Shown here piece after piece: positions 7,959 through 23,390 of a DNA stretch of 23,390 bases. The notes under the pieces were generated by a model. It had not been told where the DNA came from and did no database searches. It saw only the letters and a list, made by a program, of their open reading frames with translations. The stretch is from positions 1-23,390 of the forward strand of contig JBEKCB010000048.1 in NCBI GenBank assembly GCA_050015075.1, given 5' to 3'. Origin of the DNA: Candidatus Brocadiia bacterium (GTDB taxonomy: Bacteria > Planctomycetota > Brocadiia > CAIUPP01). Each line of letters starts with the position of its first letter. Position 1 is the stretch's first letter. The translations under genes were made by a program, and so were the position numbers.

Positions 7959-8875
7959 TGGCCGTCGTCAAAGTCACGGAGAGCTGGAAACAACTGGGCA
8001 GCAAGGTCGATGGCATCCCAGGGATCACTCCCATCTATGTGAACGCCACGAAAGTTTTCAGCGTGAAGTTCGACGTGGCCGCCGAGGGGAATTCGCTGGC
8101 CGCATTGACCGCGAACGACGGGACGACGCAGGTCCCTGGAAACGGGGCGTTCTATTCCTCCGGTTACAACTATCTGATCCTGCGGAACGTCCACGTCCTC
8201 GAACCTGTCGGGCCGACGCTGTTCCGCGTCGTCTGCGAGTATTCCGGTCTGGTCAACCCGTTTTCGCAGCAGCCCGTCCTGCGATACGCCGGCATGCGCC
8301 ACGCGGAGGAAGTCGGGCACGACGCGACCGGCAAACCCTATCGCAACACGATCGGGCAGCGTCTCACAGGGCACACGCGCGATTTCTACGACGTCATCTT
8401 CACGCTGACCCGCAACGAGGCGACGGACACCATCGTGGGCGGCGCATGGCGCGGCGTCGTGAACTCGGACACGGTGATGTGCGGCGATTACACGTGGGCC
8501 CCGAAGAAGGTGAAGATCGAGGACATTTCCGCGACGCGGGAGTACACGCCCGTCACGTCAGGAACTCTGACGTTCCAGAGCTGGTTCTATCCGGTCACGT
8601 ACACGCTGGCGGTTCGGACGCACGTCGTCACGATCAACGGCGGCAGCGCGACCGACATCGGCTGGCAGTACCTGGAGGCGAACCACGGCTCGCAGTACTG
8701 CGCCGTGTCCGGCGGCCCGACGAGGGACACCGTGAAGTACGGCCTCGGCCCCGACGTGCTCCTGAAGCAGGACGGCACGCTCGTCATGCCGACGGACCCC
8801 GACTCGTCGCTGTACTGGCTGCTCTTTGACGACTTCTTCCCGACGGCCTTCGCTCCGCTGGGGTTGAGCTTCTAA
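7958..8875 (+). CDS. Putative distal tail / hub protein
   Basis: 305 aa, beta-rich, TAATG-coupled to the tape measure; expected position for a tail-tip protein. Confidence 0.55.
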   Translation: MAVVKVTESWKQLGSKVDGIPGITPIYVNATKVFSVKFDVAAEGNSLAALTANDGTTQVPGNGAFYSSGYNYLILRNVHVLEPVGPTLFRVVCEYSGLVNPFSQQPVLRYAGMRHAEEVGHDATGKPYRNTIGQRLTGHTRDFYDVIFTLTRNEATDTIVGGAWRGVVNSDTVMCGDYTWAPKKVKIEDISATREYTPVTSGTLTFQSWFYPVTYTLAVRTHVVTINGGSATDIGWQYLEANHGSQYCAVSGGPTRDTVKYGLGPDVLLKQDGTLVMPTDPDSSLYWLLFDDFFPTAFAPLGLSF

Positions 8876-9489
8876 TGGAAAAACTCGTCATACCGACCGG
8901 GCGCGACTGGAACGACGTGCTGAAGCGGCTGGGCCGGCTCGACCGCAAGGGCGATCCGCGCCCGCGCCGCGAGCATCCCTGGACCTTCCCGGCGGGCCAG
9001 CCGATCCCGATCACGAACAACTTCTCGACGCTCGCGCCGGCGGGCGGCTTCGCCTGGCTCAACGGCAGCGCCGGTTCCGACGCCGATCATTACGGCGTCA
9101 TCCAGCCGACTTCCCCAGGCATCGCCCAGACGCTGGTCATCGTGGACTCGGACATCCCGCCTGGCGGCAACGGCCTCGGCTGGACGGCGGACGGCTGCGA
9201 GCATCCGTGCTATGACCCGATGGGGATCTTCGTGGTCAATCGGCGCTTCAGCGCGTCGGCGAACAGTTGGGCGCCCATGGCTAACCCGCTCGGGCCGGTC
9301 ACGGCAACCGCCGCGGCCGTCTCCGGCTTGGCAATGGGATTGTTCCATGGTCAGCGCGGGGACACGAAGATGGTTCGGACGGGGCCCGGCGCAACGGCCG
9401 GACTGCCCATCAAGGTCCTCATTCTCAGCGCCAACCACACTGTGACGCAGACGGCGCCAAACCAAGTCACGCTGACTTATGTGAGTTAG
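8875..9489 (+). CDS. Putative tail-tip protein
   Basis: 204 aa, TAATG-coupled, Gly/Pro/Thr-rich. Confidence 0.5.
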   Translation: MEKLVIPTGRDWNDVLKRLGRLDRKGDPRPRREHPWTFPAGQPIPITNNFSTLAPAGGFAWLNGSAGSDADHYGVIQPTSPGIAQTLVIVDSDIPPGGNGLGWTADGCEHPCYDPMGIFVVNRRFSASANSWAPMANPLGPVTATAAAVSGLAMGLFHGQRGDTKMVRTGPGATAGLPIKVLILSANHTVTQTAPNQVTLTYVS

Positions 9490-9492
9490 GTC

Positions 9493-9654
9493 ATGTTCCT
9501 GGTCATTGACTCGCTGGGAAACCTTTACACGGCGGACGAACTGATTCCGGGGACCGGCGAGGTCTTCACGGACATGGACGGCCTTCTGGATGCTTCGGCG
9601 TACACGACGACGGCCGATGGCGACGACACGCTGACCATGGGAGCGCAGACGTGA
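9493..9654 (+). CDS. 53-aa ORF missing from the ORF track; paralog of the segment preceding the Cys repeats of the next gene
   Basis: MFLVIDSLGNLYTADELIPGTGEVFTDMDGLLDASAYTTTADGDDTLTMGAQT*. Fills the gap exactly (3 nt after the previous stop; its TGA overlaps the next GTG). 23/53 ungapped identity to aa 262-314 of the 9651-11861 protein. Confidence 0.8.
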   Translation: MFLVIDSLGNLYTADELIPGTGEVFTDMDGLLDASAYTTTADGDDTLTMGAQT

Positions 9655-11861
9655 AATGGAAACGCTTCCTTTTCCTGTGGGTGATTCTTGTGCTTCTGGA
9701 CCTATTTAACTATTCCGCCGGGACTCTCCTTGCCAGCACAGGCAACTGGAACGTCGGCGCCCAGACCTCCGCGACGCCCGGGGGCTTTAATCCCTCCTTC
9801 GGCTGGCGGAAAACCGCATGCCCGGGCGTGAAGCCGGATGCTTATGGCGGAGTCCCTCTGAACTTCAACATAGCGACCTATGCCCGGAACATCGGGCATG
9901 CGAACCACAGCGTCCAAATCACCTTCGACGTCGGCGATTACACCTTCGTGGATTGGCCCGCCAACGAGAGCAAAGGCTTTCCATGCGGCACGCCGAGCTT
10001 CTTTGAAGTCGGTGTGATCCTGCGGTATGACCCGACCAGCGGAGATTACTACTTCGCAGAGGTCGTCGGAGCTGGCGGATGGTTCCAGTATCCGATCGTC
10101 GGCTGGACGACCGGCGTTGTGGCGATCGGCAAACGCGTCGGAGGCGTCACCACGATCCTGGCGGCGCAGAACATGGGCTTCGGTTCAGGCAAATTGGAAT
10201 GCTCGGTGTGCGGGCAAGAGCTGGTCGCCAGGGTGATGGGCGGCGACCTGACGACGCCTTGGGACTATGCCGAGAACCTGGAACTGGGCTATCCGGTCCT
10301 TGAGGTCAGTGATACGGACATTCCGAGCGGGACTTTCGGCGGCATGCTCGGCGAGGGCGACGGCAACACGGACGTGGGCGGCCCGATGTTTCCTCGGATC
10401 ACCTCCTGGATACAGCAGGCGGACGCCGACAAGACGATCCTGGTCGTGGACGCGAGTGGGAACGTTTACGCGGTGGACCGCATAAATGCCGGCCCGGGCG
10501 AGGTCTTTGTCGAGATGTTCGGCGCGCTCGATTTCGACCAGTACGCCACGGCGAATCAAGGCGACAGCGCGCTTCTCCTGGGGGCTTTCTCCGGCTGCGC
10601 GACCGGCTGCACGGCGGCCTGCACCGCCGGCTGTACGGCCAGTTGCACGGCGACCTGTACGTCCGGCTGCACCGCCAGTTGCACCACCGGCTGCGAGGGC
10701 AATTGCGAGGCGGCGTGCCAGACCGCGTGCGAAACCCAGGCTTGCCAGACGTCCTGCGAGACGCAGAATTGTCAGGCGGGCTGCACCGCGGGCTGCACGT
10801 TCTCCTGTACGGCCGGCTGCACTTCCGCGTGTACGGCCGGCTGCCAGATTCCCTGCGAATCCAGCGGGTGTCAGGGCGGCTGCACGGCGGGTTGCACGGC
10901 GGCGTGCACCGCGGGCTGTACGGCCTCCTGCACCGCCGGCTGCACGAACAGTTGCACGGCGGCCTGTACGAATTCCTGCACGAGCGGCTGCACGGCCACT
11001 TGCGCCGGCGGGTGCGTGAGCGGCTGTACGACGGGCTGCACTGCCGCCTGTACGGCCAGTTGCACGGCCGGTTGTACCTCCGAGTGTACGGATAGCTGCA
11101 CTGCCGAGTGCACGGCGGATTGTACTGCGGCCTGCACGGCAAGCTGCACCACGATCTGCGAGTCCGCCTGCGAAACCGGCTGCGAGACGCACACGTGCCA
11201 GACGGCGTGCGAAACCCAGGCGTGCCAGACGGCCTGCCAGACCCATACCTGCCAGACGGCGTGCGAAACCCAAGCGTGCCAAACGGCTTGCCAGACCCAT
11301 ACCTGCCAGACGGCGTGCGAAACCCAAGCGTGCCAAACGGCTTGCCAGACCCATACCTGCCAGACGGCCTGCGAGACCCAGACATGTCAGACGGCTTGCC
11401 AGACGCACACGTGCCAGACCGCCTGCGAAACTCAGGCGTGCCAGACGGCCTGCCAGACGCACACGTGCCAGACCGCTTGCGAGACCCAACCCTGCCAGAC
11501 GGCCTGCCAGACCCACACTTGCCAGACGGCCTGCGAAACCCAGTCGTGCCAGACGGCCTGCCAGACGCATCCGTGCCAGACGGCGTGCGAGACGGCGACC
11601 CAAATCATCTCGGCGGATTATTATTGCTGCAAATTACAGTTCTGGGGGGCAGCGGGACATCAGCCTGACAACACAACCTGTTCGGGATCGCCTTACGGCA
11701 CGACTTATTCATGTATGCAGGGCAGCAGCGTCATCGGTTTCGGTTCTGGGGCGTGCCACGTCACCGTAGCCGGCCAGAGTTGCAATATGGTCACGATTCT
11801 CGGTCCTGCATGGAGCACGTTGGCAGGTTGCCAGGGCGTGCCCTGCAATTCATCCACATAG
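9651..11861 (+). CDS. Putative tail fibre/structural protein with giant Cys-X3/X4 repeat (radical SAM target candidate)
   Basis: 736 aa: hydrophobic N-terminus, beta-rich globular domain (DLFN...NW), 53-aa leader-like segment, 79 periodic Cys (aa 316-646), Cys-containing C-terminal tip. Occupies the tail-fibre slot of the operon. Confidence 0.7.
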   Translation: MKWKRFLFLWVILVLLDLFNYSAGTLLASTGNWNVGAQTSATPGGFNPSFGWRKTACPGVKPDAYGGVPLNFNIATYARNIGHANHSVQITFDVGDYTFVDWPANESKGFPCGTPSFFEVGVILRYDPTSGDYYFAEVVGAGGWFQYPIVGWTTGVVAIGKRVGGVTTILAAQNMGFGSGKLECSVCGQELVARVMGGDLTTPWDYAENLELGYPVLEVSDTDIPSGTFGGMLGEGDGNTDVGGPMFPRITSWIQQADADKTILVVDASGNVYAVDRINAGPGEVFVEMFGALDFDQYATANQGDSALLLGAFSGCATGCTAACTAGCTASCTATCTSGCTASCTTGCEGNCEAACQTACETQACQTSCETQNCQAGCTAGCTFSCTAGCTSACTAGCQIPCESSGCQGGCTAGCTAACTAGCTASCTAGCTNSCTAACTNSCTSGCTATCAGGCVSGCTTGCTAACTASCTAGCTSECTDSCTAECTADCTAACTASCTTICESACETGCETHTCQTACETQACQTACQTHTCQTACETQACQTACQTHTCQTACETQACQTACQTHTCQTACETQTCQTACQTHTCQTACETQACQTACQTHTCQTACETQPCQTACQTHTCQTACETQSCQTACQTHPCQTACETATQIISADYYCCKLQFWGAAGHQPDNTTCSGSPYGTTYSCMQGSSVIGFGSGACHVTVAGQSCNMVTILGPAWSTLAGCQGVPCNSST
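10596..11594 (+). repeat. Coding tandem repeat: CTAx 4-mers, then 7 x 54-bp units (CQTA-CETQx-CQTA-CQTHT)
   Basis: Counted from the translation: 79 Cys-initiated units. 54-bp units run 11196-11573 with synonymous variation. Confidence 0.95.
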
Positions 11862-11869
11862 AGGGAAAG

Positions 11870-12292
11870 ATGGCTTGCGCGAACATCACGGCTGCGCGAA
11901 CGGCGCCGGACTCGGACCCGCCTTACACGGAGCATCAATGCTCACTCGTGGCGCAGTTCAGCGGCGATTCATTATTTCAGAACGGGTGGATCGCCGATGC
12001 GCCGTCAGCCGGCTGTTCCGGCTTAGATGACGGGGCGTCCATTTGCAGCGACGTCATCAATGCGTTTCTCAGCGTGCGCGTGAGCCTCATGTGGGAAAGG
12101 CCTGATGCGGCGTGCCCAACGTGCCTGAGCCTGCAGCAGGCCTTGGCGCTGATCGTGAGCCGGCAGGGGACGGCGGTCGCAGGACTGGTATTGGACGCGG
12201 CGGTGGGCGCGGGAATGCCGGCGGCGCAGGCGGAGGCGCTGGCGACGGCGAACGGAATCCCGCTGGACACAGATGACGGAGGTGGGACATGA
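11870..12292 (+). CDS. Hypothetical 140-aa protein (possible fibre chaperone or maturation accessory)
   Basis: ATG at 11870 with GAGGGA RBS right after the upstream stop. Acidic, contains CPTC. Its stop overlaps the rSAM start (ATGA). Confidence 0.65.
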   Translation: MACANITAARTAPDSDPPYTEHQCSLVAQFSGDSLFQNGWIADAPSAGCSGLDDGASICSDVINAFLSVRVSLMWERPDAACPTCLSLQQALALIVSRQGTAVAGLVLDAAVGAGMPAAQAEALATANGIPLDTDDGGGT

Positions 12293-13785
12293 GCACTCGA
12301 CGGCAGCGATGGGCGGCAATGGCTACGGGCCGGGCGGCCGTTCCCGTTCGCCGCGATCTGCGGAACTGTGCGCCGTGCCGAGGCAAGCTCCTGGCGACGA
12401 TGAAAGCGGAAATCGCTCAAACGGCTGCCCACACTCTCAAGCCGCTCAACGCGAAGCTGCAAAGCCGCCCCGACTTCATTCCCGCCGCGCCGAGGACCGA
12501 GGTCGTGAAACTGCCCGGGCACACGGTGCTCTACGACGTGCACAGCATGGCGGCCGTCGAGGTGGATGACAAGAGAATTGAACAGCCGGGCTGGGTGCAA
12601 AGCCTCCACGAGCACGGACTCAACTGCGCGGAGAAGCCGCAGTTCCGCTTCTTCCATCAGACGGAGTGCCTGTACCTGATCCTTGAGGCCACGCACGCCT
12701 GCAACCTCGCCTGCCAATACTGCTTCGTTCGGAACTACTACCCGGAACAGGGCGGGATGATGACGATGGACACGGCGCGCAAAGCCATTGATCTGCTCTC
12801 GCCCAAGCAGCCCGTGTCCGTCGGCTTCTTCGGCGGAGAGCCGCTGCTCAATTGGGACCTGATCGCCGGCGTCACGGCCTACGCCAAGGACCTCGCGGCG
12901 AAACGCGGCGTGGCCAGCCGGCTGCACATCACGACGAACGCGACGCTGCTCGACGAAGAGCGGATCCGATTCCTGGACGCGAACGGCTTCTCGCTGATCG
13001 TCAGCCTCGACGGCCCGGAGGAAATGCACAACCGAATGCGGCCGGGCAAGAGCGCCGCGCTGAACAGCCAGCAGGCCACGGTCGCCAATCTGCGGAAGTT
13101 CAAGGGACGCGGCCTGGCGCTCCGCACGACACTGCGCAGCACGTTCACCGGCGCGGGGATCGAGATGCTCCCGCGCATCGAATACCTCAACGCGCTGATT
13201 GAGGACGGCTGCGCGAGTCACATGAGCGTCGAGGCGTGCAGCCTGAACGAAACCGCCTGCCTGCGTCTGCCGGACGGTCACCCTCTGGCGATCACGCCGG
13301 CGCATTACGACGCGCTCGCGCAGGAGTATCACCTGGCTGCCAACTGGTATGTCGCCCAGGTGCGCGCCGGCAAGAGGCCGTCGCTGCAACAGTTCGCCTG
13401 GGCCCTGCGCCGCCTGCTCTACACGCAGCATTCCTGCACCGAGTGCGGCGCGGGTTGCGGATACCTGTCCGTGGACCCCGATGGCCATCTCTTCGCCTGC
13501 CATCGAGAGGGCAAGTCCGTCATCGGCCATCTGGACACCGGCGTGGACGAGGAGCTGCGGGCGAAGTGGAAGGACAACCGCTTCTATGCCCGGCCCGACT
13601 GCATCGTCTGCCCGATCAAGTACCTCTGCGGCGGGGGCTGCCGGATGAATTCCCTCGACCGCCACAACGACATCCGCCGGCCCGACGAGATGGACTGCTT
13701 CCTCAAGAGACGGATGTTCGAGGAAGCGCTCTGGATCATGTGCGAATTGGGGCCGGAGACATTGCGCGCCATTTTCCCAGGATGA
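12289..13785 (+). CDS. Radical SAM/SPASM peptide/protein maturase with N-terminal RRE-like region (SCIFF/ranthipeptide-maturase-like)
   Basis: CNLACQYC SAM motif, FFGGEPLLNW, TTNATLL, VSLDG; SPASM CGAG...V.PDG..F.CH and CIVCPIKYLCGGGC...C. GHTVLYDVHSMAAVEVDD resembles the RRE beta strands of SCIFF maturases such as CteB. Confidence 0.92.
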   Translation: MSTRRQRWAAMATGRAAVPVRRDLRNCAPCRGKLLATMKAEIAQTAAHTLKPLNAKLQSRPDFIPAAPRTEVVKLPGHTVLYDVHSMAAVEVDDKRIEQPGWVQSLHEHGLNCAEKPQFRFFHQTECLYLILEATHACNLACQYCFVRNYYPEQGGMMTMDTARKAIDLLSPKQPVSVGFFGGEPLLNWDLIAGVTAYAKDLAAKRGVASRLHITTNATLLDEERIRFLDANGFSLIVSLDGPEEMHNRMRPGKSAALNSQQATVANLRKFKGRGLALRTTLRSTFTGAGIEMLPRIEYLNALIEDGCASHMSVEACSLNETACLRLPDGHPLAITPAHYDALAQEYHLAANWYVAQVRAGKRPSLQQFAWALRRLLYTQHSCTECGAGCGYLSVDPDGHLFACHREGKSVIGHLDTGVDEELRAKWKDNRFYARPDCIVCPIKYLCGGGCRMNSLDRHNDIRRPDEMDCFLKRRMFEEALWIMCELGPETLRAIFPG

Positions 13786-13798
13786 AAAGGAACGCCAC

Positions 13799-14746
13799 AT
13801 GAATGTCCGCATCTTGCGAGAGGCTGGCGGGATCGGCGACATCCTCTGCACGCTGCCGGTCGCCCGCGCCGTCAAGGAGAAATGGCCCGGCGCGAAGCTG
13901 TATTACTTCGGCCTTCGGGATTACCGGGAGGTCCAGGAGCACTGTCCCGACGTGGACGTCCTCGTCCCCGTCGAGAGCCAGGGCCGCCGCGAGCGCGACA
14001 CCGACCCGGACCCGAAGCTTCACCCGTACCTGGCCGCTCCGGGCCTGCCGGAATTCGACATGACAATTGACCTCTGGTGCCCGGCTGCGCGCGAGGAACG
14101 AGCGAAGGCCCCGAACCTCGAGCACGGCCGGATCGAATCTTTCTGCATCGCCGCCGGTCTTACGCCGTCGGACTACGTGCCGCGTTACTTCGTGAGATAC
14201 GGTGAACAGGTCTGGGCGAAGGAATGGCTCGGCGCGGACGTGAAGCGGCCTGTCGTCGGCCTGGCGCCCTTCTGCACGAACAACATCCGGCGCGACTGGC
14301 CTCTGCCGCGATGGATTGAGTTGGCGACTGCACTGGAAGCTCGTGGGGCGACGGTCCTCGTCTTTCATACCTGGTTCAGCGCCGTGGCGGAAGTGCCGGG
14401 GCGGAAGGTCATCGGGGTTCCGATCTGGCAGCTGGGCGCGCTGACCGCCGAATGCGATGCCGTCGTCACGCCGGACTCCGGCCTCTTCCATTTCTCGGCC
14501 GCCGTCCACGCGCCGGCCATCGGTCTATTCGGCTCGACCCATGCCGACCAGACCGCCAAACACTATCCGCTGCACAGGACGATCTGGCCAAAGGGTGCCT
14601 CGCGTGACCACCAGTGTAGACCGCCGTGCCTGATGTTCGAGTGGCTCGGCTGCGACAACCAGTGTCGAACCCAGGGCTGTGAAATCCTCCAGAAGATCAC
14701 GGTCGAGGATGTTCTGAATGCAGTGAGAGAAAGGACACCACCGTGA
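13799..14746 (+). CDS. Glycosyltransferase family 9 (heptosyltransferase-like, GT-B) with C-terminal Cys cluster
   Basis: GGIGD..C.LP..RA.K.KWP, R.WP...W, VVTPDSG.FH.SAAV..P.IGLFG.T and CRPPC...C...C...C...ITVEDV motifs. Confidence 0.88.
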   Translation: MNVRILREAGGIGDILCTLPVARAVKEKWPGAKLYYFGLRDYREVQEHCPDVDVLVPVESQGRRERDTDPDPKLHPYLAAPGLPEFDMTIDLWCPAAREERAKAPNLEHGRIESFCIAAGLTPSDYVPRYFVRYGEQVWAKEWLGADVKRPVVGLAPFCTNNIRRDWPLPRWIELATALEARGATVLVFHTWFSAVAEVPGRKVIGVPIWQLGALTAECDAVVTPDSGLFHFSAAVHAPAIGLFGSTHADQTAKHYPLHRTIWPKGASRDHQCRPPCLMFEWLGCDNQCRTQGCEILQKITVEDVLNAVRERTPP

Positions 14747-15806: not shown

Positions 15807-16260
15807 AGGGGCGCGACGGTCTTCGTCTTTCACACGTGGTTTAGCGCTGTTGCAGACGTGCCGGGCCGCAAGGTCATCGGGGTTCCGATCTGGCAACTCA
15901 GCGCGCTGGTCGCCGAAAGCGACCTGATTGTGACGCCCGATTTCGGCCTATTCCATCTATCGGCAGCTGTCCACGTGCCGGCCATCGGCCTTTTCGGCTC
16001 GACTCACGCCGAGCACATTTTCAAGCACTACGCGCTTGCACAAGACCATCTGGCCGAAGGACGCGCCTCGCGCCTACAAGTGCAAGCCGCCATGCATGAT
16101 GTTCGAGTGGCTCGGATGCGACAACCAGTGTCGAACCCAGGGCTGCGAGATTCTCCAGAAGATCACGGTCGAGGAAGTTCTGAACGCAGTGCAGGGACAA
16201 CGGGACATGCAATCTATGCACCAACGCGGGACCTGGTCACCCCACGGTAGTGATAGATGA
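15807..16260 (+). pseudogene. 5'-truncated, frameshifted second copy of the GT9 C-terminal half
   Basis: RGATVFVFHTWFSAVADVPGRKVIGVPIWQL...CDNQCRTQGCEILQKITVE matches about 14342-14725. One extra base near 16035. DSG changed to DFG. Confidence 0.88.
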
Positions 16261-17674
16261 ACGAAGCGCACGCTACTCCCGTCCTGCCGCCCTTGGCTCG
16301 AAGCCTCTGCTGGAATTCCTCCTCATTCCCCACCATCGGGTACTTCGGATCGTAAACGTTCTCAGCGGTGTGCGCGTTCGCCCACCAGGTCGAGACGCGC
16401 GCCGCCTGAAAGAAGCCGTCGACAATCGCGGGCGCGACATGATCCGTGGCGTACCGCCTGCGCAATTCATGGGCGACCTTCTCAAGATATCCTGCGTCGT
16501 CGGCATTCCGGAACTGCCGGTAGTGCATGGCGACGTCCTGCATAGAGAAGTTCGGCGGCCCGGGCGCGTTGGTCAGCGGGCCAATGAGGTCCCAGCCGGC
16601 ATTCAGCGCGCGCTGGACGCCATCGAACCAGCCGGACGTGAACAGAATGTCACTATTGGCGGCCACGGCATACTCGGCGCCGAACTCCCGCGCCTTGCGA
16701 AGTCCCCAGTTCCATGAACGCGTCAGACCGCCGCGATCGGCGAAGTGGTGAACGAAAATTCGTCCTTGCATTCCTTTGTCAATCCATCGCTCCCAATCGT
16801 CGGGGTTCCACCCCGGACTCGCATCGTCAACTAGAATCGCTGTTCCGTCCTTGGTACGCTCCAGGAACGTCGAAATCGCTTTCCTCGCATAATCGAACGC
16901 GCCGTACGTTGGGATTATTGCCGCTACGCGGATGGAGTCACTCTCCGTAGGCCGCGCACTAACTGAACCGTTGCCGGCGCCTGAGTCATAGATCGGCCAA
17001 CCCGGACAGGTCAGCTCGCCTATGTGCTTGAAGACGAGCATGTCTGGGGACTTGATCGCCAGATACTTTCCGGCCAAGCGCTGCGAGTAGCTCACCTCCG
17101 CCCACTTCCGGCGCAATGGATTGTCTTCGGAAAGGGGACCGACGTCTTGGAATGCTTCCGTGCGACAGAGAGACGGCGTGAACGTGAACGATCCCCATGG
17201 CACGCTCGGGTTGAGGACGAAGAAGTTGACCTTCCCTCCTGACGCGATAAAGGGACCGTCGCAGCGCAGCTTGTCCGCAAAGTCTAGTGGAGGCGCCGCG
17301 TCCAGACGCACTTGCGCCAATCGAGGGTCTGTCTGCAAGATGATGGCCGACTCGCGAAGGAACTGGGTACCCGCAGCATTGCCGAGTTCCCAGTCGTCAG
17401 GAAGAAGAAGGAAGTAGTCGCTTCTCACGAGCGACAGGAGACGGTTCAGCCCGGGACCGACGCCCACATTGTGCTTCGAGAGAACAAGCACGTCCCAGTT
17501 CAGGCCCTTGATCTCCTCTCGGTCTTTGCCTGACGATGCGTTATCGAGGCAGAACCACGAAACACTTGCATCGCGTTCGTACCTCTCGATATGCGCGCGA
17601 AGGGACGTGACGGCGCGCTCCAGGTAGGCTGGCCTCCGGCAACTGAGCGCGACGACTGAAAGGTTCAGTCTCAT
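16214..17674 (-). CDS. Tandem two-domain GT-A (GT2-like) glycosyltransferase
   Basis: Domain 1: LSVV..SC.R..YL, DNAS, N.G...GLN, PDDW. Domain 2: AAIIPTY, LVDDAS, G.TRSWN.G, NSDI, GPLTN, FIYHY.G.T. Confidence 0.85.
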   Translation of the reverse strand: MRLNLSVVALSCRRPAYLERAVTSLRAHIERYERDASVSWFCLDNASSGKDREEIKGLNWDVLVLSKHNVGVGPGLNRLLSLVRSDYFLLLPDDWELGNAAGTQFLRESAIILQTDPRLAQVRLDAAPPLDFADKLRCDGPFIASGGKVNFFVLNPSVPWGSFTFTPSLCRTEAFQDVGPLSEDNPLRRKWAEVSYSQRLAGKYLAIKSPDMLVFKHIGELTCPGWPIYDSGAGNGSVSARPTESDSIRVAAIIPTYGAFDYARKAISTFLERTKDGTAILVDDASPGWNPDDWERWIDKGMQGRIFVHHFADRGGLTRSWNWGLRKAREFGAEYAVAANSDILFTSGWFDGVQRALNAGWDLIGPLTNAPGPPNFSMQDVAMHYRQFRNADDAGYLEKVAHELRRRYATDHVAPAIVDGFFQAARVSTWWANAHTAENVYDPKYPMVGNEEEFQQRLRAKGGRTGVACASFIYHYRGVTRSRVGA

Positions 17675-17831: not shown

Positions 17832-18500
17832 TCAGTTGGTTGGAAAGCTCAGAGCGACCTTCAGCCGTTTCCAGCACGATCGGAAATTCCCGACGATATG
17901 CGCCACAGTCTCTGGATTGCTGCCGGTCTTGTAGAGGCGATATCCAAGCGACACGATCATCCGGCCGTTCCGGTTGCTCTTTGCGCTGCCGAAGATGCCG
18001 TGCCGTTGGCAGAGACGTTGAAGCTGCGCCGACAGAGCCTCCATATCCTCACATCGGGCGCTGATTTTCAGGACGAAATCAATGATAGGGCGCTCAGTGC
18101 GCTCAGATCCCTCACAGTGAAGAGTGACATCCGCCGGTTCGCCGATAGTCCACCCTAAGCCGAAGCTCAACGCCCAGTCCTGGCCGTTCCTGAACTCCTT
18201 CTCGGCTACTACCACACCCCCGAAACCGCGAAGCGTCTCAACGACCATCTCCTTCGTCTCGTGGCGCACTTCCTTCGCCCGAGCCTCCTCTCCGGCATCG
18301 TAGTGGAAATAGGAAATGCAGTGACCCGCGCCGAGATGTTCTCGCATGCGTCGGATGATTTGCAGGTGCAATTCGCGCGGGCCGCCTTGACCGCGTTCCC
18401 AGCGTTCCAGAGTAGGCTCGGAGATGAAAAGCTTCGGCGCAAATACGCGTCGGCTCAGGCCAAGGCTTTCACGAATTGCACGCAGTTCATTCGGAGACAT
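17832..18500 (-). CDS. XRE-family HTH protein with C-terminal alpha/beta domain
   Basis: MSPNELRAIRESLGLSRRVFA..L.IS..TLERWERG; RBS AGGTGAG. Confidence 0.8.
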   Translation of the reverse strand: MSPNELRAIRESLGLSRRVFAPKLFISEPTLERWERGQGGPRELHLQIIRRMREHLGAGHCISYFHYDAGEEARAKEVRHETKEMVVETLRGFGGVVVAEKEFRNGQDWALSFGLGWTIGEPADVTLHCEGSERTERPIIDFVLKISARCEDMEALSAQLQRLCQRHGIFGSAKSNRNGRMIVSLGYRLYKTGSNPETVAHIVGNFRSCWKRLKVALSFPTN

Positions 18501-20035: not shown

Positions 20036-23000
20036 TTAATGTCCGTTCACCCAGGCGCGATACTGTTTCCGAGTCTCTGGATTGTTCATATCCTGTGTAA
20101 CGTTATTCTCCCGTTTGCAGTCGCAGTTGCTCAAGGATGTATCTGGAATCTGGCCGGATATTGACTTGCCATTGAGGGAAAAGCGATACCCGATAGACTG
20201 ACCTTTACTCGCACGATAGTAATATATCGTGGTCGGAACAACTTTGGTTTTATCGAAATGCGCACTCTCCGTTGGGTTACTGCCCACGAGGTACAGCTGG
20301 GTCCTTATTGAACCCGCGCATGCGGCTTGGGGGTTCGTGATAAGTTCTGTCGCAACGGTCCATTGCACGATAGACTTTGCTGATGCTTTTGCGAATGCTT
20401 CCTCGGCTATCTCTTTTGACGTCTCTACCCCGTACCCTATAACTATGACTGCGACGGCTACAACGACGACGCCAACTGCAAGCTCGATCAGAGTAAACGT
20501 CCCCTCAGGATCCGTATATGACAGCGGATTCGCTAGCGCGTAAATATAACCTCCTGCAAGACCGTCTTCAGGATCCTTCTGCATAAATCTGCCTATCCCG
20601 CTGTAGTATGTCCTGGCGCGAGTAATGAATAGCCTCTCATCCGGATCATCGTTCAGCGTCACCCACGCCGGTGCGCTGAAACTGAATCGGGTCCCTTCCG
20701 GCGGCGGCTGGTTGAGGAGTTTCTCGCCCCAGGCGTTGTACTCGAAGCTTCCGCTGATGGCGCCGGCGGCGTTGACGATCCGGTGGACGTTGCCAGGTTG
20801 ATCATAGACGGGGTACTGGTAGTAGGTCGTCGTCGCGGTGTTGATCTTCGCGGCGACCATGTCGCCGATCCCTGGGACCGGCGCGGAGCCTCGGGTGTAT
20901 TCCGCGCGGACTGTTCCCGTGATGCTGCGCTCGACCAGCTGGCAGAGGCCGTCCTGGTCGTACATGAAGTACGCCGGTCCGTTGCTGTCCACGAGCGCCC
21001 GCCTGCGGTTCAGGGCGTCGTAGTAGAAGTAGTTCGAGACGCCGTTGCGGAAGGTCACCCGCGCCATCAGGTTCACGCTGTTGTAGGCGAAGTACGTGGT
21101 TTGAGAGGCCGGCGCGGCGATTTTCGTGCAGTTGCCGTTGAGGTCGTAGCTGTAGTACGTCGCGCTGCCGCCCACCGGGAAGCTCTTCCTCAGCGCGTTC
21201 GCGGCATCATAAGTGAAGTAGCTCTGCTGGCCGAGCCGGTTCTGCCAGCGCCGGTTGCCCACCGCGTCGTACGACCAGGCGAAGGCGTAGACGTTCTGCA
21301 TGCCGGCATTATACCAGTTTTCCCCCGTCAAGCGGTCCGCGCCGTCGTAGGAATAATAGATCGTCTTCCCGCCCTCGCGTCCGATCTTCACGATCCGGCT
21401 CGCCGCGTCGTAGCCGTAGTTGAAGTACGTCAGCGCCGTCCCGCCGGGCAGAATGCTCTTCTGGCTGAGCAATCGGTTTGCGGCGTCGTAGCTGAAGTAT
21501 GCCGCTGCCCCATTGCCCAGAAGAGTTTTCGTCCGCCGCGAGGCCGCGTCATAGGCATAGTACGCCGTCCCGCTTCCGGGAATGCTGCCGGCGCCGCCGT
21601 AGAAGGTGATTCCCCAGGCTTGGTTGCCATAGCCTCCCGACCCGACCGCCGTGCTCGCGGCGGCGGTCATCCGGCCCAGTGCGTCATACCGGAAATACTG
21701 CGCCGGCTCCCCGTCGCCGATGCTGAGTTTCAGCCGATTCCCCACCGCGTCGTACGAGTGCGACACGCTGTTCCCGAGCAGGCGCATCTCCTGCGTGATC
21801 CTGTTCAGGGCGTCGTAGCTGAAGTACGTCCAGCCCCACGCGTCCTTCGCTCCGGTCAGGTTCGAGACCGCGTCGTACCTGAAGTAAGCGTACGTCGTGT
21901 CGGGGTAGCTGACCTTCGTTCGCCGGTTCAGGACGTCGTATCGGTAGTACGTGCTGTTCGCCAGGGCATCCCGATGCTTGAGCAGGTTCGACGCCGCATC
22001 GTACGCGAAGTACTCCGAATCCCCCAGCGCGTCGCGTGCCGCCGTCTGCCGGTTCAGGGCATCGTACCGGTAATACGTCGTGTTCGACAGCGCGTCGCAG
22101 ACCTTCACCCGGTTGCCGACGGAGTCGTAGCCGAAGGAGGCGCTCTCGTTCAGGGGATCGGTCGTCCCGGTCAGCCGGTTCAACGCGTCGTAGGCGAAGT
22201 AGCTCGTCTCCTGGAGCGGAGTCGTTACCTTCCTGCGATTGCCCGCAGCGTCGTAACCGAAGTATGCCGTGTTCCCGAGCGGATCCGCCACCGCCACCTG
22301 CCGGTTCAAAGCGTCATACTTGAAGTAGGAGGCCTGGTTGAGCGGGTCGGTTGCCGCCGTCCGGTTGCCGGCCGGGTCGTACCGGAAATAGGTCCGTCCG
22401 CCGAGCGCGTCCGCAACGCAGCGCCGGCGGTTCAATTGATCATAGGCGTAGTAGGTCGCATTGTTCAGCGCGTCCTGGATCGCCGTGGAGTTGCCGGCCA
22501 GGTCGTACTTGAAGTACGTCCGGTTCCCCAGCGGGTCAAACTGGCGCTTGACCCGGTTCAGCCCGTCGTACTCGAAGTAGCTCGCGTTCAATCGCGCGTC
22601 GCAGGACATCGTCCGGTTGCCGACCGCGTCGTACCGGAAATACGTGTGGTTGAGCAGCGCGTCGCGCTGCGCCCGGAATCGGTCCACGACGTCGTAGAAA
22701 TAATACGTCGGATTCCCCATCCCGTCCACCGACGCCGTCCGGTTCTTGTACGGATCGTAGCGGGATTGGCTCGCGGTGACCGGGTTCCCGGAGGCGTCGG
22801 ACACCGATTGCAGGGTCATCAGCCGCAGCCCGTTGTACTCGTAGTAGGTGGTCACGTTCCGAGGGTCCACGCTCGCCAGGAGGTCGCCCCGGCTCGTGTA
22901 GTCGTAATAGGTCGCGTTCGTCAAGGCATCCACGGACTTCGTCCGCCGGTTGAGCTGGTCGTAGCCGAAGTACGCCGTGAAGCCGGCGTAGCTTCCCGTC

Positions 23001-23390
23001 TCAGTCCAGCGCGGCGAGACGCTCTTGATCTGGTTGTACGAGGAATCGTACGCGAAGTACGCGGCGTTGTTCTGCGCATCCACCGTGGACATCAGGAAGC
23101 CGCTCGTCGCGTCGTAGTTGTAATACGCCGTGTCCCCCCGTGGGTCCTGCACCTTCCGGCCGTGCCCGGAGGAATCGTAGCCGGTCTGCGTGCTGTTGCC
23201 GAGCGCGTCGGTGATGCAGGTCTGGTTCCGGTTCGCGTCGTACTGATAGTACGTGACCACGGAAAAAGATCCGGGCACGTTCCGCGGCTCGATCGTCTTC
23301 CGCACGTCCAGGCCGTTCGAGCCGTAAACGTACTGCGTCGTCGCTCCGTCAGCAGCCGTCTGCTCCTGCGTCAGCGAATTGAGCGAATTG
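20036..23390 (-). CDS. Rhs/YD-repeat polymorphic toxin, 5'-partial
   Basis: About 21-aa YD repeats (D.LGN.TY..YD..N). Rhs core R.Y....GRF.Q.DP...Y.YA..NPL.YTDPEG, then a 153-aa lower-GC CT. Frame is open to the window edge. Confidence 0.93.
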   Translation of the reverse strand, partial: NSLNSLTQEQTAADGATTQYVYGSNGLDVRKTIEPRNVPGSFSVVTYYQYDANRNQTCITDALGNSTQTGYDSSGHGRKVQDPRGDTAYYNYDATSGFLMSTVDAQNNAAYFAYDSSYNQIKSVSPRWTETGSYAGFTAYFGYDQLNRRTKSVDALTNATYYDYTSRGDLLASVDPRNVTTYYEYNGLRLMTLQSVSDASGNPVTASQSRYDPYKNRTASVDGMGNPTYYFYDVVDRFRAQRDALLNHTYFRYDAVGNRTMSCDARLNASYFEYDGLNRVKRQFDPLGNRTYFKYDLAGNSTAIQDALNNATYYAYDQLNRRRCVADALGGRTYFRYDPAGNRTAATDPLNQASYFKYDALNRQVAVADPLGNTAYFGYDAAGNRRKVTTPLQETSYFAYDALNRLTGTTDPLNESASFGYDSVGNRVKVCDALSNTTYYRYDALNRQTAARDALGDSEYFAYDAASNLLKHRDALANSTYYRYDVLNRRTKVSYPDTTYAYFRYDAVSNLTGAKDAWGWTYFSYDALNRITQEMRLLGNSVSHSYDAVGNRLKLSIGDGEPAQYFRYDALGRMTAAASTAVGSGGYGNQAWGITFYGGAGSIPGSGTAYYAYDAASRRTKTLLGNGAAAYFSYDAANRLLSQKSILPGGTALTYFNYGYDAASRIVKIGREGGKTIYYSYDGADRLTGENWYNAGMQNVYAFAWSYDAVGNRRWQNRLGQQSYFTYDAANALRKSFPVGGSATYYSYDLNGNCTKIAAPASQTTYFAYNSVNLMARVTFRNGVSNYFYYDALNRRRALVDSNGPAYFMYDQDGLCQLVERSITGTVRAEYTRGSAPVPGIGDMVAAKINTATTTYYQYPVYDQPGNVHRIVNAAGAISGSFEYNAWGEKLLNQPPPEGTRFSFSAPAWVTLNDDPDERLFITRARTYYSGIGRFMQKDPEDGLAGGYIYALANPLSYTDPEGTFTLIELAVGVVVVAVAVIVIGYGVETSKEIAEEAFAKASAKSIVQWTVATELITNPQAACAGSIRTQLYLVGSNPTESAHFDKTKVVPTTIYYYRASKGQSIGYRFSLNGKSISGQIPDTSLSNCDCKRENNVTQDMNNPETRKQYRAWVNGH

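Follow-up and report, generated by a model that had tools for sequence, protein, structure and literature searches.

What is a free copy of part of a tail-fibre-like protein doing in a phage genome? This question was raised by a 23,390-nt stretch of a Candidatus Brocadiia assembly (GCA_050015075.1, contig JBEKCB010000048.1, positions 1 to 23,390, forward strand; hereafter the window). It contains a 53-codon open reading frame (ORF) whose product resembles a segment inside the protein encoded by the next gene, a 736-residue fibre-like protein. A sequence-only reading had taken the internal segment for a leader recognised by a radical S-adenosylmethionine (SAM) enzyme, and the free copy for an activator acting in trans, a decoy or a core-less paralogue. 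As an alternative, it had offered a domain for hetero-oligomerisation or attachment. Related loci were compared, and the results showed that the small ORF is a conserved phage gene which is inherited together with the internal copy, whichever repeats and enzymes follow. The features concerned were as follows.

8875..9489, + strand: P3, a tail-tip gene for 204 residues, directly upstream of the small gene
9493..9654, + strand: the small gene, an ATG...TGA ORF for 53 residues, the free copy of a ~50-residue all-beta module
9651..11861, + strand: gene of the 736-residue fibre-like protein, GTG start
9651..10433, + strand: N-terminal part of the fibre-like protein (residues 1-261), a hydrophobic N-terminal helix and then a beta-rich domain
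10434..10592, + strand: internal copy of the module (residues 262-314), forming the neck that joins the N-domain to the repeat stalk
10593..11594, + strand: repeat stalk with Cys at every fourth residue (residues 315-648), CTxx and then CQTA/CETQ units
11595..11861, + strand: Cys-containing globular C-terminal end of the fibre-like protein (last 88 residues and the stop)

Homology between the free and internal copies

The sequences and coordinates that had been quoted for both copies were exact, and positions 10434-10592 encode residues 262-314 of the 736-residue ORF. The gapless alignment of the 53-residue ORF with this segment gave 23/53 identical residues, as had been reported. BLASTP of the pair gave 23/50 identities with 47 bits and an E value of 2e-12. 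When the 53-mer was shuffled 2000 times and compared with the 736-residue protein, the best ungapped match had 10.4 identities on average and 14 at most. The DNA of the two copies was alike in only ~60% of the columns (95 invariant columns listed of 159). This meant that the duplication was old and had been retained at the protein level. These two were the only copies of the module in the 4.64-Mb assembly. Two details of the sequence-only reading were correct in part. The internal copy was said to end one residue before the first Cys, which was true for the repeat region (S314, G315, C316), but the N-terminal domain has four earlier Cys residues. The ending L-x-x-G-A was found in both window copies. 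However, the copies of relatives ended in ..ITYVE (free) and ..VTYVISS (internal).

Evidence that the small ORF is a gene

P3 homologues in metagenomes were used to gather 13 metagenome loci, and two IMG/VR contigs (L018 and L019) were added. All of these comparative loci came from related phages of peat, soil and sediment, and several were redundant. L004 was identical to the window, L007 and L018 were the same as L006, L011 was the same as L010, and L014, L015 and L016 were of one type. A hidden Markov model (HMM) of the two copies detected a ~50-residue ORF right after the P3 homologue in L005, L006, L008, L009, L010 and L012 (E 1e-12 to 1e-15), and a second, weaker match was found within the following large ORF of the same loci. 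The same small ORF was located at the same position in L019. It was directly behind the P3 homologue in all seven of the distinct related loci that reached that point.

The start codon of the small ORF, GTG or ATG, overlapped the upstream stop codon (GTGA/ATGA) in 5/7 loci and was 4-5 nt past the stop in L006 and L019. In the window, the stop codon of P3 (TAG) is 3 nt ahead of the ATG of the small ORF in the same frame, and the TGA of the small gene overlaps the GTG of the fibre gene (GTGA, 9651-9654). These arrangements point to translational coupling of the small gene to its neighbours. The small ORF was in frame with the fibre gene across a stop codon in L005, L006, L009, L010 and L012 (TAG) and in L019 (TGA). 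Since its frame relative to the neighbours varied between loci, it was judged to be an independent cistron rather than an extension of a neighbour by read-through or frameshift. A fusion by stop read-through or frameshift was rejected because the frames differ in L008 and in the window, and the P3 homologues end at 203-215 residues; the sole long P3 homologue (261 residues) bears an unrelated extension. An alternative genetic code was also rejected, since TAA, TAG and TGA all terminate ORFs in the operon.

Selection and distribution were then considered. The Nei-Gojobori dN/dS values of the small ORFs were 0.04-0.7 (14/15 pairs computable), and those of the most diverged pairs, with dS of ~0.8, were 0.13-0.26. 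Contigs from four DNA metagenome runs were uninformative on selection because they were near-identical across the small ORF. A profile of the small proteins was searched against a set of 5.8 billion proteins and gave 19 clusters (90% identity) of free-standing homologues of 50-59 residues, which formed three subfamilies. The exact 53-residue protein was recorded on 15 contigs in a public protein collection, and metagenomes of peat, soil and sediment from 17 studies contained the locus in near-identical form (20 runs, 5 of which were possibly the source of this DNA itself). A copy of the module was found in 0/60 genomes of relatives and in 0/400 other genomes of the phylum, and searches of genome contigs with module profiles gave no match. 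Viral contigs gave no match with the A1 and A8 profiles, and with the other profiles only L018 and L019 were matched.

Alternatively, the small ORF might be a non-functional remnant of duplication or module shuffling, its frame being a chance product of GC-rich DNA. Long spurious frames abound in this window (63% GC), and the Shine-Dalgarno sequence of the window copy is weak. However, the start and stop codons were intact across loci that differed at many synonymous sites, and dN/dS was below 1. The 19 homologous clusters were of the same length, and the protein motif was kept while the DNA was ~60% alike. A remnant is already contradicted by this conservation, and we consider it extremely improbable. 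These results showed that the 53-residue ORF is a real, conserved small phage gene under purifying selection.

Joint inheritance of the two copies

The internal copy was found in all six of the distinct loci in which this part was readable, namely the window, L006, L012 and L019, which carry Cys repeats, and L010 and L008, which carry Ser/Thr repeats. All six of these loci had both the free and the internal copy. In the case of the L014/L015/L016 type, neither copy was detected (no HMM match at E<=10 in any frame). In the fibre-like protein of this type, Ser-rich repeats come directly after a short N-domain, and the P3 homologue of this type ends in an unrelated, longer C-terminus with an extension of ~100 residues. 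The L019 locus is on a 43.6-kb viral contig whose other head and tail genes were unrelated or very distant. The DNA similarity between L019 and L006 (80%) had its start inside P3, near residue 115 of 204, and extended over the small gene and the fibre gene. This boundary indicated that the co-inherited unit was the P3 C-terminal domain (~89 residues) together with the small gene and the fibre gene.

The copies also resembled each other within lineages. The internal copy of the window was 43% identical to its own free copy and 30% identical to the internal copies of the other lineage. The other internal copies were 32-48% identical to their own free copies and 25-32% identical to the free copy of the window. 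The C-terminal strands followed the lineage, with ..GA.. in one and ..TYV.. in the other. In a maximum-likelihood (ML) tree, each internal copy was placed beside the free copies of its own lineage, and 0/200 bootstrap trees united the internal copies. This pattern suggests co-evolution, gene conversion or repeated duplication. The joint presence and absence of the copies, their inheritance in one cassette and their resemblance within lineages fit the alternative in the sequence-only reading, under which the module would serve hetero-oligomerisation or attachment.

The same observations bear on the possibility that both copies bind a common third partner, for which the P3 C-terminal domain and a glycan on the host surface are candidates. 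In that case, the small protein would either form a tail-tip component of its own or occupy spare sites. The L019 boundary inside P3 is in favour of this, because the C-terminal ~89 residues co-vary with the small gene and the fibre, and so is the different, longer P3 C-terminus in the locus type that lacks both copies. However, the resemblance of the copies within lineages would be equally expected and did not discriminate. A common third partner is rather unlikely in our judgement, with some weight still given to it.

The module pair and the chemistry of the stalk

Two genes for modifying enzymes are located downstream of the fibre gene.

12289..13785, + strand: radical SAM/SPASM peptide-maturase-like enzyme (Pfam Radical_SAM, 9.9e-17)
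13799..14746, + strand: family-9 glycosyltransferase (GT9; Pfam Glyco_transf_9, 1.7e-16)

The radical SAM gene begins 430 nt 3' of the fibre gene. The top NCBIfam matches of the enzyme were the SCIFF, nif11-type, QhpD and PapB maturases, all under the curated cut-offs, and it is the presumed modifier of the Cys stalk. The locus is similar in one respect to those of peptides made by the ribosome and modified after translation (RiPPs), whose leaders are bound by the PqqD-like RiPP recognition element (RRE) of radical SAM/SPASM maturases (SCIFF, ranthipeptide, sactipeptide). A segment is located directly N-terminal to Cys-rich repeats, near a gene for a SCIFF/ranthipeptide-like radical SAM/SPASM enzyme. 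On this basis the internal module had been proposed to be bound by the RRE of the enzyme, and a common occurrence of the motif in phage tails lacking the enzyme and the Cys repeats had been named beforehand as evidence against it. The Cys-type locus L006 retained a radical SAM orthologue with 81% identity, which is in favour of the proposal, and a GT9 with 83% identity.

However, the module pair was kept before Ser/Thr repeats in 2/6 distinct loci with a readable internal region (L010 and L008), and the motif does not always precede Cys repeats. The 7.8 kb downstream in L010 contained GT2, methyltransferase and GT2 genes, two unknown ORFs and a NotI-like nuclease gene. No radical SAM gene was found within these 7.8 kb, the remaining ~12 kb of the contig being outside the search. 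The pair was thus kept in just the setting that had been named as speaking against a leader. In searches of Pfam and NCBIfam at E<=10, no PqqD/RRE or leader family was matched by the first 134 residues of the enzyme or by the module, which is no proof that the domain is missing because RREs are divergent. No peptidase or transporter (ABC/exporter) family was detected in Pfam scans of 25 window ORFs. This also disfavoured the suggested double-Gly-type cleavage site, for which the L..GA ending was restricted to the copies of the window and missing in relatives. In addition, the 'precursor' would be a 736-residue structural-looking protein within a tail operon, in contrast to known RiPP precursors. 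An RRE-bound leader with the free copy as trans activator or decoy has already been largely refuted by these results and now appears very improbable. The earlier interpretation was partly supported overall. The small gene and the module do not depend on the stalk chemistry, in which either Cys repeats are paired with a radical SAM enzyme or Ser/Thr repeats are paired with glycosyltransferases.

The stalk and the enzymes encoded behind it varied together. Cys repeats were followed by radical SAM/SPASM and GT9 genes in the window (10593-14746) and in L006 (2384-8382). Ser/Thr repeats were followed by GT2, methyltransferase and GT2 genes in L010 (5727-10280), and Ser-rich repeats by a GT9-like gene in L016 (~10790-13000). 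The N-domain, the neck module and the C-terminal end were retained while the stalk and the enzymes varied. The stalk seems to be exchanged together with the enzymes encoded behind it, which suggests that a phage fibre stalk may be decorated or cross-linked in alternative ways after translation. Regardless of its catalytic class, the enzyme encoded first behind the fibre had a common N-terminal mini-motif. The radical SAM enzyme of the window (12289-12420) starts with MSTRRQRW... and contains DLRNCAPC, the GT2 of L010 (6818-6880) contains LDLRNCQPC, and the GT9-like gene of L016 (12446-12560) starts with MSTRRERW... and contains PPCHNC. This mini-motif might serve as a shared docking element or zinc knuckle, or it might be a joint left by recombination. 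In the parts of the literature available to us, no report was found on radical-SAM-modified phage fibres, NHL-like fibre modules, CXXX-repeat systems or a module of this kind.

Fold of the module

The 53-mer was modelled with AlphaFold2 (AF2) from a 26-row alignment. The model consisted of five beta strands with a mean predicted local distance difference test (pLDDT) score of 72.5. When a profile of the two copies was run against 1.84 billion representatives, 470 matches were obtained at E<=0.001. Among the best 150 of these 470, five spanned at least 44 of the 53 profile positions in one stretch. They were the window protein, a frame-shifted fragment of it and three small proteins. The other 145 of the best 150 were large proteins with 4-22 short matches, nearly all at profile positions 3-18. 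Eleven of the multi-stretch proteins were scanned, and 9/11 contained Pfam NHL and 2/11 other beta-propeller families. The NHL blade contains a hairpin that is matched by LVVDxxGNVYxxD, the first hairpin of the module. In a profile search of the PDB, NHL-derived 'Pizza' designer propellers and PknD were matched via a 12-residue hairpin. When 63 NHL blades from 14 matched proteins were compared using hhalign, 14 columns were aligned; this result was favoured, since the blades had been picked with the HMM of the query itself.

The likeness did not reach the Pfam thresholds. None of 10 small proteins matched NHL (PF01436), one matched SBBP at E 0.036, which is below the threshold, and the internal segments had no NHL or SBBP match. 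At E<=0.001, the 53-, 736- and 204-residue proteins gave no PHROG match. The module resembles NHL/SBBP blades, including the self-assembling 'Pizza' fragments from the PknD sensor propeller, in its first hairpin and its length of about one blade. However, the likeness spans 12-14 columns only, there is one copy per chain instead of a tandem array, and no propeller structure was matched by the model. As modelled, the module is a new ~50-residue beta unit with an NHL-blade-like first hairpin and not a demonstrable NHL repeat.

A bolder possibility is that three fibre blades and three small proteins close into a six-bladed collar of pseudo-sixfold symmetry. The blade-like length and the hairpin are compatible with such a collar and nothing else backs it, and we consider it quite improbable. 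If it were true, a propeller would be formed from six separate one-blade polypeptide segments, and a trimeric fibre would be matched to a sixfold tail tip. The stoichiometry would also explain the joint presence and absence of the copies and their shared drift. The pseudo-hexamer of T4 gp27 and the fibritin foldon share the idea that a duplicated module adds copies around a symmetry axis. In contrast to such symmetry-adapting duplicated domains, the duplicate here is a separate polypeptide of 50 residues and not a second domain in the chain.

The fibre-like protein and P3

The large proteins of the relatives were homologous to the window fibre through the N-domain and the module. The N-domain of the fibre was homologous to those of the L010-type proteins (27% identity over 158 residues, E 5e-9). 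L006, L012, L019, L010 and L008 carried the equivalent internal segment with a loop that was longer by 9 residues. The module was followed by Cys repeats in L006, L012 and L019 and by several hundred residues of Ser/Thr repeats in L010 and L008. Ser-rich repeats were located in the stalk position in L016. The C-terminal ends after the repeats ('..DYYC..') were similar in L010, L008 and L016 when read by eye. The fibre-like proteins of the relatives began with a hydrophobic stretch, as that of the window did.

Variation within the repeats was also observed. Metagenome contigs had joints that step back 70-96 nt and start exactly at the border between the module and the repeats (10592-10700; repeats to 11594). 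A public protein with 99% identity has 727 residues, compared with 736 in the window, and the public record P0018 goes out of frame within the repeats. These three observations were read as variation in repeat number.

P3 had 11 homologues of 162-261 residues, and those in the metagenomes that were used to find the loci had 203-215. It comes after a gene of tape-measure length and a gene for 305 residues, both in the window and in L007/L010. P3 had no match in Pfam, PHROG or NCBIfam, and a profile search of the PDB gave none. In the ESM Atlas, it was found in viral clusters only, with a sub-threshold 'phage cement' resemblance.

A proposed role for the free module

Based on the above results, we propose that the small gene encodes a stand-alone paralogue of the neck module of the fibre. 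The same module in the next gene would form the neck between the globular N-domain and the low-complexity stalk. Duplicated self-associating modules often associate with each other. The free module would associate with the internal module of the fibre, with the co-inherited P3 C-terminal domain, or with both. In this way the neck of the fibre would be completed or stabilised, and the fibre would be docked at the tail tip. We give even chances to this role, in which the free module joins one or both partners and completes or anchors the neck at the tail tip. Accessory and adaptor proteins of phage tail fibres are alike in that a small gene is located within a tail-tip or fibre cassette and is inherited along with the fibre. 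No relation in sequence or fold was found to fibre adaptors, T4 gp27 or the fibritin foldon.

Several points weigh against this proposal. The tree signal was weak, with branch support of 84/34 for the free and internal copies of the window, and a tree with all internal copies in one clade remained acceptable under the approximately unbiased (AU) test (p 0.08). The comparative loci were few, related and from similar habitats, so they were not independent. The model of the 53-residue protein did not resemble solved folds, with a best E of 3.6 in Foldseek against the PDB and no Z>=2 among 48,161 chains in VIA-align. The AF2 model of fibre residues 1-330 was unusable (pLDDT 32, 7-row alignment). 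The N-terminus of the 736-residue protein (9651-9725; MKWKRFLFLWVILVLLDLF..) is similar to a signal peptide or a membrane helix, with an AF2 helix at residues 4-19, which is unusual for a tail fibre. In addition, it is gene order alone that suggests this protein is a virion fibre.

The free copy might also act as a transient assembly factor that mimics the neck, nucleates or guards the oligomerisation of the fibre, and stays outside the finished virion. The small size and the coupled translation just ahead of the fibre are consistent with this, and phage fibres often require dedicated small helpers. However, in most fibre chaperones known to us the gene is located downstream and the protein is no paralogue of a fibre segment, and no PHROG family was matched. 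We regard an assembly factor of this kind as unlikely.

Other genes of the window

The window as a whole corresponds to the late region of a (pro)phage of siphovirus-like type. Its head and tail genes include a capsid/protease fusion, a cement-like decoration protein, a gpZ-like tail completion protein and a tail tube protein, and there is a 146-residue gene without a family match. An 831-residue gene at the position of the tape measure is followed by the 305-residue gene and then by P3.

Further ORFs were observed behind the fibre gene. An ORF at 11711-12292 overlaps the end of the fibre gene, sits between it and the first modifying enzyme and has no family match. Its true start is probably near 11870 because conservation was found only from residue ~54 (48-54% in L015/L016). 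A partial second GT9-like ORF (15858-16250) resembles parts of the first GT9 (13799-14746; 65-83% identity by tblastn, L004 and L006 rows), and an ORF with a GT2 domain is located on the minus strand (16214-17674). These two are either more glycosylation genes behind the fibre or remnants of such genes. A helix-turn-helix (HTH) repressor-like gene (17832-18500, minus strand) and a gene for a large RHS/YD-repeat protein with an RHS-associated core (20036-23305, minus strand) may be markers of either the end of the prophage or the flanking host DNA.

Implications

These results removed as wrong the attractive idea that a phage fibre contains a leader peptide. It was replaced by a testable one, in which a previously undescribed family of ~50-residue phage proteins would be paralogues of the neck of the neighbouring fibre. 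Small virion genes of such size are often missed by annotation. Since the neck module is independent of the stalk chemistry, substrate recognition by the radical SAM enzyme probably takes place elsewhere, for example in the repeats themselves. The small gene marks the left border of a mobile fibre cassette, in which the stalk and its modifying enzymes appear to be swapped as a unit.

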